A DNA stretch of 64,000 nucleotides from a virus. A program made the position numbers and the translations under genes. Every line of letters begins with the position of its first letter. Positions within the stretch are counted from its first letter, which is position 1. Where the stretch lies: IMG/VR virus record IMGVR_UViG_3300032245_001163; one strand, given 5' to 3'. The notes below the pieces were generated by a model. The model saw only the letters and a list, made by a program, of their open reading frames with translations. It did no database searches and was not told the DNA's origin. Below, piece by piece: positions 7,844 to 56,013 of the stretch.

Positions 7844-9309
7844 CCTAGTTTCATCCAATCAAGTTTTTCCTGTGTAAAAGGATAATTGGCTTCTCGATAA
7901 AACTGTTTGCGCTTGGTCAAATGACGCTTGGCAAATTTGCAAGTTGAAGTTATGTCCCAAATTTGGACGTGGTCTTTGTCTTCTGCTTTGCGTATGCCAC
8001 GACCGATTGACTGAATGACACGCACAAAACTCTTACCAGGTTCAACAAGCACAAGATTAAAAATCCTAGGAATATTAATACCAACGGCAGCAACACCATA
8101 AGTCGCCACAATGATTTTATCAACTGCATCTGCTACCTCATCATATTCTGCTTGTCGTTTTGTTCCTTTGGTTGCTCCGGACACAAACACTGCCTTGTCT
8201 CCCAGCCGTGCAACCAATTGCCTACCGCACTCGGTACGATCCACCAACACCAATGTGTTGCCTGTTTCATTTACTTGCCGCACAAGATCTGCCATGGTGT
8301 CTAGTCGTCCTGACTCTTCCAGCAAGTATTTGAGTTCGCTTTGATAGTCCTTGTATTCCACATGGTCAATCAACTGCACAATATTCACATGGCAATTGGC
8401 AAGCACACCTTGTTGTTGCAGTTCATTGGCGCTGAGCTTGCCGATTACAGGACCAAGACTGACCAATAGTGCTTGGCTTTCAAACTTCTCTTTGGGCACA
8501 GTTCCTGTCAATCCCCAGCGAATTGGCACTCGGGCCATGACACCTGTTAACAAGGTTTTGAGTGCGTCTGCTTTGGCCATGTGTACTTCGTCTACAATAA
8601 CGCACACAACATCTTCAAGAAACTCGCCAATGGTACAGTCGCCTACTCCAGCCTTGGTATTCTTCAACAGGTTGTTTAGACTTTGCCATGTGCAAATTGT
8701 GTGCTGGCGTCCGTATTCTTTTCTGTCGCCAAAGTACACACCAACATCTTGTTGCATGTTGATATAGTCTGCTTCGGTTTGTGTAACCAAGCTCTTGTTG
8801 GGCACAATAACAATGCTACGTCCATAAGGAGCCACAGCATTGCTTAGTGCCGCTGTCATGATTGTTTTACCTGCACCTGTTGCTACTTCTTGTATGCATT
8901 GTGGATTGGCCAAAAAGTTGTTGATGATTTCCACTTGGTAGTCTCGCAACATAATGGATTGACCTGCGGCAGGATGTGTCTTGGGCCATTGAACATGTGA
9001 AAAGGATGTTTCTGAGACCTGTTCAAAGTTGAATGTGTTTGAATAGTCACGTTGATCATCCAATTCAACATCATAATCAAACTTTTCCAAGATGGGCATG
9101 ATCTCAGGCAACAAGTTCACATAAGTTGACCCACCCAGTTGAAAGTATGCTACCTTGCCGTCCCAGCGTCCCAGTCGTACAGCAGGCAAATAACGTGCGG
9201 CAGGGTTTTCATATTTGAAAGCATTGACCAGAGTCTTGCGAGCATCCAAGTCCAGGCCTTCGATCTTGATGTTTACTTCATCACGTATTTGTATGGTGCA
9301 TCGTTTCAT
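7840..9309 (-). CDS. uvsW: SF2 DNA helicase, UvsW-like
   Basis: LRDYQ Q-motif, ATGAGKT, DEVH, GLTGT, QSIGRGIR. Confidence 0.88.
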   Translation of the reverse strand: MKRCTIQIRDEVNIKIEGLDLDARKTLVNAFKYENPAARYLPAVRLGRWDGKVAYFQLGGSTYVNLLPEIMPILEKFDYDVELDDQRDYSNTFNFEQVSETSFSHVQWPKTHPAAGQSIMLRDYQVEIINNFLANPQCIQEVATGAGKTIMTAALSNAVAPYGRSIVIVPNKSLVTQTEADYINMQQDVGVYFGDRKEYGRQHTICTWQSLNNLLKNTKAGVGDCTIGEFLEDVVCVIVDEVHMAKADALKTLLTGVMARVPIRWGLTGTVPKEKFESQALLVSLGPVIGKLSANELQQQGVLANCHVNIVQLIDHVEYKDYQSELKYLLEESGRLDTMADLVRQVNETGNTLVLVDRTECGRQLVARLGDKAVFVSGATKGTKRQAEYDEVADAVDKIIVATYGVAAVGINIPRIFNLVLVEPGKSFVRVIQSIGRGIRKAEDKDHVQIWDITSTCKFAKRHLTKRKQFYREANYPFTQEKLDWMKLG

Positions 9310-10430
9310 ATGTATTGGGCCAGTTCTGGGAATATCTGTTTAAAATTTAGTTCACGATACCGATCGTGCTCGTGCAAGTAGTGTTTAAAGTTGCCAAAAT
9401 GTTCACTGTCATCTGTGTTTTCGACCAGCCCTGCCCAGGTCTGTACATCAGGATGTTGGCTGGTTTTTAATTTATCTACAATCTGTTGCCGAGCATGTTT
9501 GGTCCACACTGTGGGTCTCATATGTGCAGGAGTATGTACTCTACCCACCCATGGTCTAGGCAGTCCTGCATTATAACACCATGTAAAAAATTCGTCAAGG
9601 TAATAGATATTGTAGGCACTCACAGTATGACTCACGCTGAGCCGAAAGTTTGGTAAATTTTGGCACTCCAAATACCTGGCCAAATTGGGTTGTATTTGAT
9701 TCCAGTCTCCAGGATAGCGAATATAATTGTACTGTTTGTCTATTCCGTCTATGCTCAATTGCATGTCGATCTCTTTGAAGTGCTGCCATAACTTCCACCA
9801 TTCTTGATCGGGCCATACTGTGATATTGGTAGTATAATGCAAAACAATGTTGGCAGCCTGGCCAGTGTCAACGTAATGTTGCAACAAGGCTTTTTGCTCT
9901 GCAACACCACTGAGAAAAGGTTCGCCGCCCGGGATATCAATGTGTACCAGTTGCGGAGCCACACCTACAAAGTCTTGTACAAAGTTGTTCTTGTAAAAAC
10001 GAAAATTCTTTATGTCTTTGAGATAAATGGTTTGATATTCTTGTTGCCACCTACTGCTGTTATACGGAGTACATGTGATGCAAGCAAGATTGCAAGTGTT
10101 GCCAAATGCTATACTTGCTGTAATAAAATTATGCTGTTCAAAATCATAGTCAGTGTAATGCTGTTGCCATCGTGTAAAATCTAACTGTCTCTTGCTTTCA
10201 ATATTGTTTTTTTCTTCAATTTGGCATCGAGTACATCCACTAGGCCACTGACCTTCTTGAAATTGTTGTTGTATAGATTTTAAAAAGGCACTATCACGAT
10301 ATTGTTGTATAGTGTGATTGCCAATGTTAAATTTTTCATCGTACGTATTGGTAAGAAATTTGCAACAAGGAGACATATCGCCTACTGGGCTGATATCAAT
10401 GTTGGTCCAAGGAGAAAAACAAAAAGGCAT
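9306..10430 (-). CDS. radical SAM protein with N-terminal twitch-like Cys cluster
   Basis: FCFSPW...PCC, CTRC, CNLACITC, GGEP; start at MPFC (10430) just after a promoter. Confidence 0.88.
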   Translation of the reverse strand: MPFCFSPWTNIDISPVGDMSPCCKFLTNTYDEKFNIGNHTIQQYRDSAFLKSIQQQFQEGQWPSGCTRCQIEEKNNIESKRQLDFTRWQQHYTDYDFEQHNFITASIAFGNTCNLACITCTPYNSSRWQQEYQTIYLKDIKNFRFYKNNFVQDFVGVAPQLVHIDIPGGEPFLSGVAEQKALLQHYVDTGQAANIVLHYTTNITVWPDQEWWKLWQHFKEIDMQLSIDGIDKQYNYIRYPGDWNQIQPNLARYLECQNLPNFRLSVSHTVSAYNIYYLDEFFTWCYNAGLPRPWVGRVHTPAHMRPTVWTKHARQQIVDKLKTSQHPDVQTWAGLVENTDDSEHFGNFKHYLHEHDRYRELNFKQIFPELAQYI

Positions 10431-10437
10431 ATTGTAT

Positions 10438-10466
10438 ATAGTAGCACATACACAAACGCAAGTCAA
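10438..10466 (-). promoter_or_regulatory. sigma70-type promoter, probably leaderless
   Basis: TTGACT-N17-TACTAT with TG extension; ATG 7 nt downstream. Confidence 0.6.
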
Positions 10467-10490
10467 AAAAACAGGCTCCGAAGAGCCTGT
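10465..10490 (-). terminator. Rho-independent terminator of the early transcript
   Basis: ACAGGCTC-TTCG-GAGCCTGT followed by a T run; cUUCGg tetraloop. Confidence 0.9.
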
Positions 10491-10497
10491 GTAAAAA

Positions 10498-10525
10498 CCC
10501 GGGGCGGAGCCAACCAATCCCCGGG
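10498..10525 (-). ncRNA. candidate structured RNA element: GC hairpin with anti-RBS loop
   Basis: CCCGGGG-ATTGGTTGGCTCCG-CCCCGGG; loop complementary to GGAGCCAAC at the early RBS. Confidence 0.5.
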
Positions 10526-10532
10526 GTAAATC

Positions 10533-10622
10533 TTATTCAAGTATCAGAATAACAAACGCTAACAAAAATGCTAAAAAGGGCTCACCTACTATTAGAAACA
10601 GTAGCACAATGAGCCACGCCAC
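10533..10622 (-). CDS. small hydrophobic membrane peptide (29 aa, not in ORF track)
   Basis: GTG 1 nt after the ATPase stop; MAWLIVLLFLIVGEPFLAFLLAFVILILE. Confidence 0.5.
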   Translation of the reverse strand: MAWLIVLLFLIVGEPFLAFLLAFVILILE

Positions 10623-10623
10623 G

Positions 10624-11652
10624 TTAGGCTGCCTTCATACATGTAGTTTCTGCAAGACGCTTCCAGTTGCCGGAAAAGCTCTTGCGCAAGTCTGCAATCT
10701 TCAGCGCCATACGCAAACTCATCTCACGCAAACGATTCTGATTTGCTTCCATGAACTCGATGATCTCGTCTTGCACACACTCTTCAAAATCATAGTCTGC
10801 AAACAACACACCATCTTTGGCAATTTGTTTGATACGCAATACTTTATCACGCATAGTATCCAGTGTCAAATCAAGATAATGACAGCGTGATTGCAATGCA
10901 TCCAAGTGATCACGCAACTTTTGGCTCTTCATTTGATCAAACTTCAAGTTGGTAATAAAGATCACTGAGCCTTTGAACTCGAAACGATCTGGGATGCCTT
11001 CACGGCGCAGAGTTGAAGACTCTGACAACCATGAAATGGTACGCTTCTTGCCGGAGTCCAGGGCACCCTTGAGCAAGTTCAAGGCCACGTCATCAAGCAA
11101 AATGCTGTCACAGTCATCAAACACCAACACACAGTTGTCGTCTGAGTATTTGTACAGGGCTTGATACAAACCAATGGGGGTCGCACTACCTTTGACAACT
11201 TCGGCACGGAGGCGCTTGCCTGCCAGTTTGTCAAACAGTGTAGCCTTTTCAATCTCTTGCTCAACGCCAAACGATTTGCCAACTCCGGGAGGACCTGACA
11301 CAATCATAGCACGGATGTCGCCGTTGACACAGGCTTTTGTCATCTCATGCAAGATGTCAAAACGCTCACGAATACGTGTCATAATTTGTTCTTCTGTTTC
11401 AGCCTCTACTTGGGGCTTGGCAAATGCCACTGTATTTTCTTTGCTCACTGCATCTCCATTGACATACTCGATGTCGCTAATGTTGTTGACTTTGATACGG
11501 ATGGTGTCGGGGCAGTTGGGAAATGCACCGTTGTTTTCTACTGTCACGAAATTCCCTTTGGCGCCAGATTGAAAGCCTGACACAAGATTGAAAGCGATGT
11601 TGCGCACGGGTTTGTTGCGATACTCACCACTAATAACACGAATTGCACTCAT
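10624..11652 (-). CDS. AAA+/P-loop ATPase (early gene)
   Basis: Walker A GPPGVGKS, Walker B LVFDD, IFITN sensor, SRC arginine finger; AAAGGAGCC RBS. Confidence 0.85.
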   Translation of the reverse strand: MSAIRVISGEYRNKPVRNIAFNLVSGFQSGAKGNFVTVENNGAFPNCPDTIRIKVNNISDIEYVNGDAVSKENTVAFAKPQVEAETEEQIMTRIRERFDILHEMTKACVNGDIRAMIVSGPPGVGKSFGVEQEIEKATLFDKLAGKRLRAEVVKGSATPIGLYQALYKYSDDNCVLVFDDCDSILLDDVALNLLKGALDSGKKRTISWLSESSTLRREGIPDRFEFKGSVIFITNLKFDQMKSQKLRDHLDALQSRCHYLDLTLDTMRDKVLRIKQIAKDGVLFADYDFEECVQDEIIEFMEANQNRLREMSLRMALKIADLRKSFSGNWKRLAETTCMKAA

Positions 11653-11695
11653 TGTTGGCTCCTTTGAAATGCGGTTGTTTACTGTTTATGTCTCT

Positions 11696-11724
11696 ATTAT
11701 AGCAAATAACGGATTATTGGTCAA
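11696..11724 (-). promoter_or_regulatory. early sigma70-type promoter
   Basis: TTGACC-N17-TATAAT. Confidence 0.85.
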
Positions 11725-11896
11725 CCGGGGCAAACAACTGTTGACCTTGTTGCATAAAAACAACAAACGCTTCCATTGTGCGTTCACTGTACATCATGCG
11801 ACCATTTTTTTGAATGTCTTGCAGTGTTTCCAACAGGCCCATGCCCTGGAAATCTGCTTCTTTTTGGATTTGTTTGATTGCTGTGGTGATCTGCAT
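11714..11896 (-). CDS. small early hypothetical protein
   Basis: 60 aa; own promoter and AAAAAGGAGCC RBS. Confidence 0.75.
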   Translation of the reverse strand: MQITTAIKQIQKEADFQGMGLLETLQDIQKNGRMMYSERTMEAFVVFMQQGQQLFAPVDQ

Positions 11897-11899
11897 TGT

Positions 11900-11931
11900 G
11901 GCTCCTTTTTGCTTTGTATGCCATTATTATA
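11900..11931. repeat. 32-nt promoter/leader direct repeat, copy 1
   Basis: ggctcctttttgctttgtatgccattattata, identical to 12194-12225. Confidence 0.9.
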
Positions 11932-11954
11932 GCATTTTGGGGATTATTGGTCAA
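11926..11954 (-). promoter_or_regulatory. early sigma70-type promoter
   Basis: TTGACC-N17-TATAAT. Confidence 0.85.
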
Positions 11955-11965
11955 CCAAAAAAGTA

Positions 11966-11983
11966 GTACTACCTAAGTATTAC
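11966..11983. promoter_or_regulatory. candidate operator GTANTAC-N4-GTANTAC
   Basis: gtactacctaagtattac, identical to 12249-12266; upstream of the -35 box. Confidence 0.55.
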
Positions 11984-12189
11984 TTTTTGAACTGTTCAAA
12001 GAAACGGGTGTTGATCTCGTCCATTTCTGCCTGCTCCACATAGAAGTCAGTAGTAGGATCGTAGTACTGGCCTGCCTTGTTGTCATAATACAACACACGA
12101 CCTGAGAAGTTGAATGGGCCTTCCAGTCCTTTGCGAGGACCATATTTGTTGCGCATCACGTCTATGGTGTCAACTACACGATATCCCAT
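11980..12189 (-). CDS. small early hypothetical protein
   Basis: 69 aa; LYYD...QYYDP aromatic repeats; own promoter and GGAGCC RBS. Confidence 0.75.
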   Translation of the reverse strand: MGYRVVDTIDVMRNKYGPRKGLEGPFNFSGRVLYYDNKAGQYYDPTTDFYVEQAEMDEINTRFFEQFKK

Positions 12190-12193
12190 GTCT

Positions 12194-12225
12194 GGCTCCT
12201 TTTTGCTTTGTATGCCATTATTATA
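12194..12225. repeat. 32-nt promoter/leader direct repeat, copy 2
   Basis: Identical to 11900-11931. Confidence 0.9.
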
Positions 12226-12248
12226 ACAAAAAGGTAAATTCTGGTCAA
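12220..12248 (-). promoter_or_regulatory. early sigma70-type promoter
   Basis: TTGACC-N17-TATAAT. Confidence 0.85.
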
Positions 12249-12266
12249 GTACTACCTAAGTATTAC
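12249..12266. promoter_or_regulatory. candidate operator GTANTAC-N4-GTANTAC
   Basis: Abuts the -35 box; identical to 11966-11983. Confidence 0.55.
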
Positions 12267-12267
12267 C

Positions 12268-13017
12268 TTAGCACCAGTTGTTTGCAATCACAGGGTCTGA
12301 TGTACATTCATGCGGCTTGGGACGGCCGTGAAATACCAAGATGCTGGTGTCGCCACCAATGTAGGCATTTGCTCCGGCACCGGGTGCATTGGGTTTTTTT
12401 GTGGCAAAGTTGTACCCGCCGTCTTGCACTTGCCAACGCCAACTTTGTAAGTGTTGTTGATCAAAATATCTGCGCTGGTTGGGATCAATTGCTATGCCTA
12501 AGTAATCTTGATCGCCGGGGTACTTAACCACAGTTCGATTGATATCCAGTTGATCAAACTCATTCCACACATGCGCATACCGGGCAACATTCCACCACAT
12601 CACACTGGAGTTCATGCCTGAATAACTTTTGCGTTGGAGATATCTAAAGTCTCTAATGGTCCAAAAACATTCTGTGCTCAGTGCTGGTATCCAACTTAGA
12701 TCATTTATGATCACACAATCAAGATCAAAATACAATAGATTACCTGCGTGATGTTCAGGATTGAACAACTGCATTTTGTACCACCACTCACGTTTGGGTC
12801 CACCAATCCCAGGCCATTCTTTTAGCGAGTGTTTGATCATGTGTGGCGGCACAGGTCTATCATGCTCGGTATACACATGAAAACGTATGCCATGTTGTAA
12901 ATTTCTCGACAGCATGTTATACAGTTTTTCTACATACACCCATTCATAACCAGTGCCATGTATCACACATGCACAATCAGTTATTGAGTCAGTGCGGGCT
13001 CGATTCTTTTTAGCCAT
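12268..13017 (-). CDS. GT-A glycosyltransferase (GT8-like)
   Basis: LYFDLD (DxD), NSSVM, GDQDY, VFHGRPKP. Confidence 0.8.
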   Translation of the reverse strand: MAKKNRARTDSITDCACVIHGTGYEWVYVEKLYNMLSRNLQHGIRFHVYTEHDRPVPPHMIKHSLKEWPGIGGPKREWWYKMQLFNPEHHAGNLLYFDLDCVIINDLSWIPALSTECFWTIRDFRYLQRKSYSGMNSSVMWWNVARYAHVWNEFDQLDINRTVVKYPGDQDYLGIAIDPNQRRYFDQQHLQSWRWQVQDGGYNFATKKPNAPGAGANAYIGGDTSILVFHGRPKPHECTSDPVIANNWC

Positions 13018-54876: not shown

Positions 54877-56013
54877 TTACCAGGCTTTTAGGATGACCAG
54901 GTTCTCAGTTCCGCGTCCGTTGAACGGGGTTTCTGTTGTAGTAAGGTCTTTGTAGATCTTACGTGCTGCCGGCTTGCCTGCGGCTTGCACTGCTCGGACA
55001 ACATCTGCTGGCTTGCGCACAGTTTTCTGCATGGTCTCAATGGTGCTGAAACCAATGATGCTGTTGCTTTTCACAGTGAATGCCTGTGTGTGGCTGTCAG
55101 CAACAAGGTGGATCAACTTGCGCTTTTTGGTGTCATACAACCAGGCTTCGGCTTTGTCCACAAGACTTGCGGCTGGCAAACCTTTGAGTTTGAGTTCAGC
55201 AAATTCCATTAACACCTTGAACTTGGCCGCACGTTTCTCAGGTGGCACTGACTTGACCTTGCGTGGTTTGCGTTCAACCTTCTTGATCTGCACATACGCA
55301 CCGCAGTCATTGATCACTGCTTCGCAAAACTTCACAATGTTGCGCATTTGAATCTTGGAGAAGTTGCTGTAGCCTTCTGCCAGTTGTGCATCCTTGCCCT
55401 CTATGGCAGTTTCAAACTCTGCAAGTTTGTGCTTCCACAAGTTGGCAATGTCTGAAATCATCTGCGGAGCCACGTTCATGCCACGGATCACTGTAATGGG
55501 TTTGTAGTCCGCACTCATCTTGGCACCGTTCACAACAAACTCATCAAACATGCCGTCCAATTCACCTGCACACTCCGATACCTTTTCACGGAGTCGATCT
55601 TGAATGTTGGGCTTGGCTGCCACAGGCACGGCTTCTACCACTGCCGCTTCGGGCTCACGTGCCTTTAATATTTCCTGGATATACCCTTCTAGCCGAACTG
55701 TTTCAGTGTCTGTGAGTTCCAGCCCCACCATGCTCATGCGGCACAACCATGCAGTGGTCAAGCGAACTGCTGAGTCTGGTACACCTTTCAGCGCACGAAC
55801 ATCTGCTTTGCGTCCGTGATGTTCCAAGTATGCTACCAGCATTTCGCGGGCATCCTTTTTGCCATAAAAGTAATTGTACCATGAAAAGGCAGCACTGAGT
55901 TGGCTGGTGCGATCATCTGTGGGTTGCACACGCCATGTGGGCTCCAGTCCTGTGTATTTGGTATCAGGACTGCGAGGGTTCATTGGCTTGACAGCGGCTC
56001 GTGTTGCGTTCAT
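54877..56013 (-). CDS. early hypothetical protein
   Basis: 378 aa; GGAGCC RBS and early promoter; WLYDTKKRKL, KTVRKP, NGRG C-terminal domain. Confidence 0.75.
   Translation of the reverse strand: MNATRAAVKPMNPRSPDTKYTGLEPTWRVQPTDDRTSQLSAAFSWYNYFYGKKDAREMLVAYLEHHGRKADVRALKGVPDSAVRLTTAWLCRMSMVGLELTDTETVRLEGYIQEILKAREPEAAVVEAVPVAAKPNIQDRLREKVSECAGELDGMFDEFVVNGAKMSADYKPITVIRGMNVAPQMISDIANLWKHKLAEFETAIEGKDAQLAEGYSNFSKIQMRNIVKFCEAVINDCGAYVQIKKVERKPRKVKSVPPEKRAAKFKVLMEFAELKLKGLPAASLVDKAEAWLYDTKKRKLIHLVADSHTQAFTVKSNSIIGFSTIETMQKTVRKPADVVRAVQAAGKPAARKIYKDLTTTETPFNGRGTENLVILKAW

Follow-up and report, generated by a model that had tools for sequence, protein, structure and literature searches.

The question raised by this locus is what a hairpin standing just before the terminator of an early transcript might do, when its loop is complementary to the RBS near the start of the same predicted transcript. 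The window, i.e., the whole 64,000-nt stretch of viral DNA analyzed here (IMG/VR record IMGVR_UViG_3300032245_001163), carries this module on its minus strand, where the 7-bp all-G/C stem and loop described in an earlier, sequence-only reading are readily confirmed. In hairpin 1 (10498-10525), CCCGGGG (10525-10519) faces CCCCGGG (10504-10498) in seven G/C pairs, which enclose a 14-nt loop, AUUGGUUGGCUCCG (10518-10505). A spacer of 8 nt separates it from hairpin 2, a predicted intrinsic terminator on the same strand (10465-10490), which has an 8-bp stem, a UUCG loop, and a U7 tail (ACAGGCUC-UUCG-GAGCCUGU at 10490-10471, followed by U7 at 10471-10465), displays every hallmark by which intrinsic terminators are recognized, and closes the early transcription unit. 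ViennaRNA predicts both hairpins in the 176-nt 3' region (z = -4.76). A scan of positions 9000-13000 on both strands with the Rfam covariance models gave no match at E values of up to 1, and, among the other terminators of the window, none bears the complement of an upstream RBS. The promoters and terminators discussed throughout are consensus predictions only.

Immediately beyond the terminator lies the next minus-strand promoter (TTGACT-17-TACTAT, 10466-10438), the -35 box of which (TTGACT, 10466-10461) overlaps the terminator U-run. It drives a radical-SAM/SPASM gene (ATG at 10430-10428, minus strand), which is leaderless, since its ATG lies only 7 nt past the -10 box; this gene also lacks a site for the loop, in agreement with the earlier suggestion that leaderless messages would escape any effect of the hairpin. 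The junction as a whole is a conserved arrangement made up of hairpin 1, the terminator, a promoter of the form TTGACT-N17-TA(C/T)(T/A)AT, and, 5-8 nt past its -10 box, a leaderless ATG; its position is kept in relatives even though the downstream gene varies between the radical SAM gene and other ORFs.

The early unit that ends here encodes an AAA+ ATPase of 342 aa (10624-11652, minus strand; phrog_1250), a homologue of nrdC.10 of T4-like phages, for which a PDB sequence search returned no match. Its mRNA is predicted to start from a Sigma70-type promoter (TTGACC-17-TATAAT with an extended -10 TG, 11696-11724, minus strand) that is conserved in relatives, and transcription from two further predicted early promoters on the same strand (11926-11954 and 12220-12248) would end at this terminator as well; the strict terminator met first after the predicted promoters (11724, 11954, and 12248) is the one at 10490-10465. 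A small, strongly hydrophobic ORF of 29 aa (10533-10622, minus strand) takes up most of what appears to be the ATPase 3' UTR; its GTG start codon comes 1 nt behind the stop codon of the ATPase. Its own stop codon precedes stem 1 by 7 nt, so that a terminating ribosome on this ORF would reach into the stem. In many relatives, the interval from the ATPase gene to the hairpin contains an ATG-started homologue of this ORF, often accompanied by further small membrane-like ORFs.

The RBS and start codon of the ATPase, GGAGCCAACAAUG, occupy 11650-11662 on the minus strand, and the core of this antisense target, GGAGCCAAC, lies at 11654-11662. The anti-RBS core of the loop, GUUGGCUCC (10506-10514, minus strand), occupies the 3' portion of the loop, a single nucleotide away from the 3' stem arm. 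GGAGCCAAC and GUUGGCUCC form 9 contiguous Watson-Crick pairs, and, with the loop G at 10515 bulged, AAU and AUU add 3 more, exactly as the earlier reading had counted. In the clade of this window, the 10th pair is an A-G mismatch, which leaves 9 bp. The duplex of RBS and loop has a predicted energy of -18.4 kcal/mol, versus -7.9 kcal/mol when a 16S-type tail takes the place of the loop. A second potential partner of the loop, a GGAGCC within the terminator's 3' arm (10474-10479, minus strand; CGGAGCC with GGCUCCG), was considered and rejected; as relatives have other terminator stems, this match is probably a coincidence of the present clade.

Whether such a match means anything depends on its fate in related genomes. 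A megablast search of positions 9300-12300 against GenBank phages found nothing, and the best protein relative of the ATPase among these phages, from the PA5oct group, is only 46% identical. IMG/VR, in contrast, holds hundreds of relatives with ATPases 75-99% identical, and five scans of it yielded about 200 usable loci, some of which represent one contig fetched twice, the set comprising 135 distinct RBS-plus-module sequences. One relative (G001) is a contig of 349 kb that is rated 97% complete; given relatives of this size and completeness, these are jumbo phages, and they constitute a family of uncultured giant (about 350 kb) freshwater phages.

In the main class of these loci, class A, the two parts of hairpin 1 behave very differently. 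Stem 1 varies freely (CCCGGGG/CCCCGGG, CCUGGGC/GCCCAGG, UCUGGGC/GCCCAGA, and GUUUGGG/CCCAAAC), and an RNAalifold analysis of 33 relatives recovered compensatory double changes at all 7 of its 7 pairs, together with covariation in the terminator stem. In the same alignment, the 10 columns of the loop that read GGUUGGCUCC do not vary. Toward its 5' end, the loop is variable in both length (2-9 nt) and sequence, and the conserved core always lies 0-1 nt from the 3' arm. Likewise, on the target side, the SD plus spacer is invariant in the main class, and the remaining 5' UTR diverges. Most class A phages have GGAGCCAACCAUG as the ATPase RBS, with a perfect complement of 10-11 nt that is better than that of this window. 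The 10-mer GGTTGGCTCC occurs exactly twice in nearly all main-class loci of ~9 kb, once in the loop and once as the complement of the ATPase RBS, and, judged from such counts, the complementarity between the two is far beyond chance. In class A loci L034-L039, we also observed, in addition to the loop element, a second anti-SD stretch directly 5' of hairpin 1, CUCCUUUUU, which is complementary to AAAAAGGAG of the same ATPase leader.

These patterns bear on the simplest account of hairpin 1, namely, that it is the first of two tandem terminators and that its match to the RBS arose by chance. In this window, UUUUU does follow stem 1, and CUCC, the generic anti-SD core, is part of the loop. However, the U-run after stem 1 is not conserved, with relatives showing CUUU, UUUUA, AUUCA, or AUUUC in its place; the 14-nt loop is atypically large for a terminator (11-20 nt overall); the stem of hairpin 1 would suit a terminator, but the hairpin as a whole does not have the hallmarks of one; and the loop core stays invariant while the stem varies. 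Further, the ten matched-complement classes described below exclude a chance match. Hence, we regard this account as exceedingly improbable. Nonetheless, as both partners are invariant within the main class, the case for covariation between loop and RBS rests on switches from one class to another rather than on many small steps within the clade of this window.

Among the relatives, we recognize at least 10 RBS classes, each of which has its own complement directly 5' of the terminator (e.g., the RBS/antisense pair GGAGCCAACC/GGUUGGCUCC). Thus, the RBS GGAGCCAAC(C/A/U) is matched by the antisense GUUGGCUCC in class A, GGGCUAGAAA by UUUCUAGCCC in class B, GGGCUAGUAA by UUACUAGCCC in class C, GGAGUUGGC by GCCAACUCC in class D, (CA)GGAGCUAA(C) by (G)UUAGCUCC(UG) in class E, CAGGAGC by GCUCCUG in class G, GGAGCGAAA by UUUCGCUCC in class H, AGGAGCUA by UAGCUCCU in class I, and GGAGUUAAA by UUUAACUCC in class J; in class F, the RBS GGGAGUAGCAA faces an interrupted complement, UUGC-GAAUUA-UGCUCCC. 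Several classes are separated by a single compensatory pair, i.e., C:G to U:A from A to E, U:A to G:C from E to H, C:G to U:A from E to J, and A:U to U:A from B to C, and four pairs are swapped between A and D. Mixed combinations, with an RBS from one class and an antisense element from a different one, occur in no locus. In the class table, the match is to the element's own class in all 141 of the 141 loci with a detected element, and the first 153 loci gave matched-class counts of 116 for A, 12 for B, 3 for C, 2 for D, and 9 for E, with no cross combinations.

Over all scans, 8 or more contiguous Watson-Crick pairs were found in 184 of the 194 loci (95%) that have an intact ATPase 5' end and the terminator/promoter junction in the flank, with a mode of 9-11 nt, a 19-nt RBS window having been compared with up to 62 nt before the terminator. 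The cross-class control gave contiguous complements of 8-11 nt within a class and of 4-7 nt with other classes, the mean being 9.85 for the RBS and element of the same locus and 5.08 for loci of another class. The duplex energies (-20.1 kcal/mol for the same locus versus -13.2 kcal/mol for another class) separate the two less well than contiguous complementarity does, because duplexfold ignores the folding of the G/C stems themselves. On a tree of the ATPase DNA, at least 8 class changes are required, of which 7 are forced by well-supported branches, and phylogenetically independent pairs all point in the same direction (6/6; sign test P = 0.031). The exceptions include one locus with a complement of 6 nt (L181) and one in which no junction was found in the 4-kb flank (L179). 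The test that the sequence-only reading had named, that the loop should track the RBS in relatives, was therefore passed in about 200 IMG/VR relatives and at least 10 classes, and this co-variation bears out its identification of the loop as an anti-RBS of the ATPase gene.

The structural setting of the element is less constant than its complementarity. In classes A-D, it lies in the hairpin loop of a G/C stem, and in classes E-J, it is single stranded and abuts a small hairpin, so that the complement has been kept across clades despite a changed context. Two other readings of the loop were discarded on the basis of the class comparisons. One, a protein-bound antitermination hairpin of the lambda nut boxB type, is at odds with a loop that changes with the ATPase RBS, always into its complement, and with classes E-J, where the antisense element is not in any loop. 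The other took up a likeness of the loop (GGUUGG..CUCC) to the 3' end of 16S rRNA and was abandoned since classes B, C, and D have no such resemblance.

Co-variation alone would also be compatible with a feature of the DNA, because complementary RNA sites are, on double-stranded DNA, the same sequence in inverted orientation. On such an account, a 10-bp inverted repeat flanking the ATPase gene would be bound by a DNA-binding or recombination protein, and the stem would serve only for termination. The specificity of this protein must, however, have changed at least 8 times, and 10 bp without dyad symmetry would be atypical for a site of this kind; the spacing of the two sites also varies, from 1.1 to 3.1 kb. 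Moreover, one site always lies over the SD and spacer, and the other is always in an unpaired RNA context beside a helix. Finally, changes that keep a G-U wobble are tolerated: several lineages have an RBS ending in AACU (A3-type RBSs) opposite a loop G, and one locus (L140) has a loop U opposite an RBS G, which fits RNA pairing rather than DNA recognition. Taking these findings together, we consider a role at the DNA level very unlikely. The comparisons among relatives instead show the two sites to be complementary and to be kept so by selection, specifically for the ATPase gene. As both sites have changed together many times in evolution, we conclude that the 3' hairpin element and the ATPase RBS almost certainly pair as RNA, probably so as to restrain translation of the ATPase.

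The sequence-only reading went further and proposed a switch that silences early genes in general, noting GGAGCC before four genes with TTGACC promoters. GGAGCC indeed precedes the genes starting at 11652, 11896, 12189, and 56013, but it extends to GGAGCCA in the first three only; the gene at 56013 reads CAGGAGCCCAUAUG, a 6-nt match to the loop. The collateral matches of the loop thus amount to 7 nt at the genes starting at 11896 and 12189 and to 6 nt at 56013. Weak effects on these three genes are possible but are not what selection maintains. In the variant clades, the promoters of the neighboring early genes are of the same TTGACC/TATAAT type, but the RBSs of these neighbors are unrelated (GGAACCC, GGAGUCC, and GGAGCCAC), and in each of these loci, the element finds a match of at least 9 nt at the ATPase RBS alone. 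In class E, some neighbors still use GGAGCCA, although the element has shifted to GUUAGCUCC. The general silencing of early genes is therefore not upheld: since the element followed the ATPase RBS and the neighbors did not, it is better described as a gene-specific brake than as a general early-gene switch. The common occurrence of GGAGCCA in this window is accounted for by a repeated early promoter-leader cassette. In the 349-kb relative, early genes scattered over the genome (sites at 118412, 159258, 159556, 160217, 193111, and 233758) share the near-identical cassette TTGACC..AATATTCCCAA..GCTATAAT..AAAAAGGAGCCA..ATG, and in this window, a unit of the same type, a 32-nt leader repeat, precedes the genes at 11896 and 12189.

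A version of the broader proposal that deserves separate consideration is that the module gives rise to a trans-acting sRNA with a regulon. In this version, an RNase would cut within the A/U-rich stretch that precedes stem 1 and so free hairpin 1, together with the terminator, as a stable RNA of ~65 nt, which would accumulate and shut down all early mRNAs with a GGAGCC(A) RBS. The 3' module does resemble an sRNA body, with its structured seed hairpin, terminator, and U7 tail, and has the conserved single-stranded seed expected of one, the loop core being invariant in the main class; OppZ and CarZ offer a precedent (PMC7398697). GGAGCCA is common to three genes in this window, and the pattern GGAGCCA-N1-7-ATG is enriched in the 349-kb class A relative (17 sites versus 3 for a control pattern), the sites sampled in class A genomes being genuine early promoter-leader cassettes. 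Yet the only target that tracks the seed is the ATPase RBS. The neighboring early genes did not take part in its class changes, those of class E retain a GGAGCCA that the changed element no longer matches, and the matches to the other genes of this window are only 6-7 nt. The extra tag matches in the class B and class E records lie inside coding sequence and have no promoters. The element itself is single copy in five contigs of 215-349 kb, including the 97%-complete relative, where the sites of the 10-mer comprise the RBS, the loop, and 0-3 chance sites, all of the extra ones inside coding sequence. Lastly, a conserved internal promoter before hairpin 1 was not seen in the aligned relatives. 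We therefore consider a regulon-wide sRNA possible but doubtful.

The layout of the transcription unit favors action in cis. In 137 of 142 relative loci, there is no convincing terminator between the ATPase gene and the element, which lies 42-2107 nt downstream of the ATPase stop codon and 1.1 to 3.1 kb from the RBS; as both sites belong to one predicted transcription unit in nearly all genomes, pairing within a single molecule is the favored arrangement. Two class C loci (L050 and L152) differ in that a terminator-like hairpin and a promoter separate the element from the ATPase gene, an arrangement that counts on the side of a trans-acting RNA, as it would require either trans action or read-through. 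In these loci (4633-4700 in L050), the hairpin, of 9 bp, comes directly after the ATPase stop codon and is followed by the new promoter, and the full antisense element lies about 970 nt beyond it; the loop of this hairpin, CUAGC, is complementary to 5 nt of the RBS of the clade (GGGCUAGUAA).

Folding of complete messages is consistent with pairing over this distance. In the pseudoknot-free MFE fold of the whole mRNA of this window, nt 28-36 are paired with nt 1184-1176, and, among mRNAs of 1.1-2.2 kb from classes A-E, the RBS pairs with the element in the MFE folds of 11 of 11 representatives and ceases to do so when the element core is shuffled. Long-range MFE folds are weak evidence when taken alone, and here they confirm only that nothing stronger competes for either site.

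In light of the above, we propose that this terminator-proximal 3' element, by pairing with the ATPase RBS, probably acts as a gene-specific brake that limits synthesis of the ATPase. The ATPase mRNA would start at the promoter at 11724 or at one of the two upstream early promoters and end at 10465-10490, so that its tail would hold a 9- to 11-nt antisense copy of the ATPase SD, the spacer, and, across a 1-nt bulge, part of the start codon. Once transcribed, 1.1-2.2 kb after the RBS, the element would pair with the RBS and block binding of the 30S subunit, either in cis on one molecule, in the manner of icaR, or after the stable 3' end has been cut off as a small RNA, in the manner of OppZ and CarZ. 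Synthesis of the ATPase would thereby be limited following an initial co-transcriptional burst, and the helix between RBS and element may, in addition, render the mRNA a substrate for nucleases. We infer repression as the most likely outcome, since a 30S subunit could not bind where a helix occupies the SD, the spacer, and, in many cases, the start codon. That the antisense core consistently adjoins a helix further suggests, on geometric grounds alone, that the helix formed by RBS and element may stack coaxially on the stem. A more tentative proposal builds on these points: as 1.1-2.2 kb separate the RBS from its downstream antisense partner, the ATPase might be translated only while its transcript is being made, completion of the transcript closing the RBS with a helix stacked on the stem, and the module would then constitute a built-in limiter of a pulse of synthesis.

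Covariation proves pairing but not its sign, and it can be asked if contact between the two ends instead protects the message, by forming a loop that shields its 5' region and the GGAG from endonucleases and stabilizes the transcript. T4-type phages attack GGAG in early mRNAs with RegB. An interaction between the 5' and 3' UTRs that controls ribonuclease action has been documented for hbs of Bacillus subtilis (PMC5737220). A helix that lies over the SD and the spacer, and in many cases over the start codon too, cannot, however, coexist with a bound 30S subunit, and far-downstream anti-SD sequences have been found experimentally to be repressive and destabilizing (PMC12697547). Further, no match to the RegB or RegA families was found in the 97%-complete relative, in a search that lacked a positive control, PF10715 and PF01818 having matched neither this 349-kb genome nor any control genome. 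A protective role is hence unlikely, and a brake on translation remains the reading that we prefer.

Text searches of the literature gave no description of this phage element, but the remark in the sequence-only reading that no description of the mechanism was known to it has to be withdrawn in view of three precedents, namely, icaR (PMC3868564), OppZ and CarZ (PMC7398697), and long-range anti-SD sequences (PMC12697547). In icaR of Staphylococcus aureus, the 3' UTR contains an anti-SD motif that binds the SD on the same mRNA, thereby blocking the initiation complex and creating a substrate for RNase III (Ruiz de los Mozos et al. 2013, PMC3868564). The locus described here shares with icaR an anti-SD in the 3' tail of the target's own (predicted) transcript that is complementary to the SD region. 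It differs in that icaR is a bacterial mRNA with UCCCCUG on the SD, whereas here a double-stranded DNA jumbo phage has a longer pairing, of 9-11 nt, that covers the SD plus the spacer and is private to one gene; in that a dedicated G/C stem directly before the terminator displays the element, and small ORFs can intervene; and in that the support comes from phylogeny, with at least 10 covarying classes, and not from experiment. Autoregulatory sRNAs derived from 3' UTRs, OppZ and CarZ of Vibrio cholerae, repress their own operons (Hoyos et al. 2020, PMC7398697). As in these cases, the RNA at the 3' end of the unit shares its terminator and would pair with the initiation region of its own operon in a negative feedback. 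However, OppZ and CarZ are cut by RNase E, bound by Hfq, and act in trans, with OppZ triggering Rho termination, whereas the present element bears no sequence relationship to them and would target the promoter-proximal ATPase gene. Anti-SD-like sequences hundreds of nucleotides downstream have also been reported to impair initiation and to favor decay of the mRNA (Gill et al. 2025 preprint, PMC12697547), and these parallel our case in that a distant, pyrimidine-rich anti-SD-like sequence pairs with the RBS. Such sequences are generally depleted, whereas here one has been kept, extended beyond the SD, and co-evolves with the RBS.

The presentation of an unpaired anti-SD seed for an RBS by a stable stem is also known from RNAIII and the Rsa sRNAs of S. 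aureus (PMC2790875). These have a generic UCCC seed, many targets, and independent transcription, in contrast to the private seed in the tail of its own target that is found here. In the RNA phages MS2 and Qbeta, pairing of an RBS with a distant segment of the same RNA controls translation. Long-distance masking of an RBS in Qbeta (PMC2978339) concerns a single-stranded RNA genome, as in MS2, where translation of a cistron opens the pairing, whereas the element in question is a dedicated, terminator-adjacent 3' element in the mRNA of a double-stranded DNA phage. On the strength of the sequence comparisons, then, this is a phage-borne, hairpin-displayed, and gene-private anti-RBS whose mechanism has precedents and for which the phylogenetic proof is unusually strong.

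Beyond this family, we looked at more distant homologues of the ATPase. Directly after that of phage PA5oct (L161; MK797984.1, 3640-3690) lies a hairpin, AAAGUAGCA-AGG-AUGCUACUUU, the 5' arm of which repeats 7 nt of the RBS GGAGUAGCAU and the 3' arm of which is an 8-nt complement of the RBS. We rejected this match as evidence, since 88 of 200 trials with shuffled RBSs gave matches of at least 8 nt; by length, it is within chance, and its position may be regarded as suggestive. The PA5oct record has an RNA-seq-based annotation, and RNA-seq data for this phage thus appear to exist. No comparable complement was found at the ATPase loci of Citrobacter phage Ci1 and Aeromonas phage 25.

End-to-end pairing within mRNAs of the bacterial type has been documented experimentally in no more than a handful of cases and is usually hard to prove. 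In these phages, evolution has run the compensatory-mutation experiment many times, which provides an unusually clean instance of an RNA-RNA contact over 1-2 kb under selection. If the element indeed limits translation to a pulse while the transcript is being made, it would be the first covariation-proven 5'-3' pairing of an mRNA in a DNA phage and would come with a natural library of at least 10 orthogonal pairs of RBS and anti-RBS; ten or more such matched natural pairs could become orthogonal parts for translational control. More generally, terminator-proximal phage hairpins with oversized loops merit comparison against upstream RBSs. For the biology of these phages, the contact points to a tight control of the dosage of an AAA+ ATPase that is conserved from T4-like to jumbo phages.
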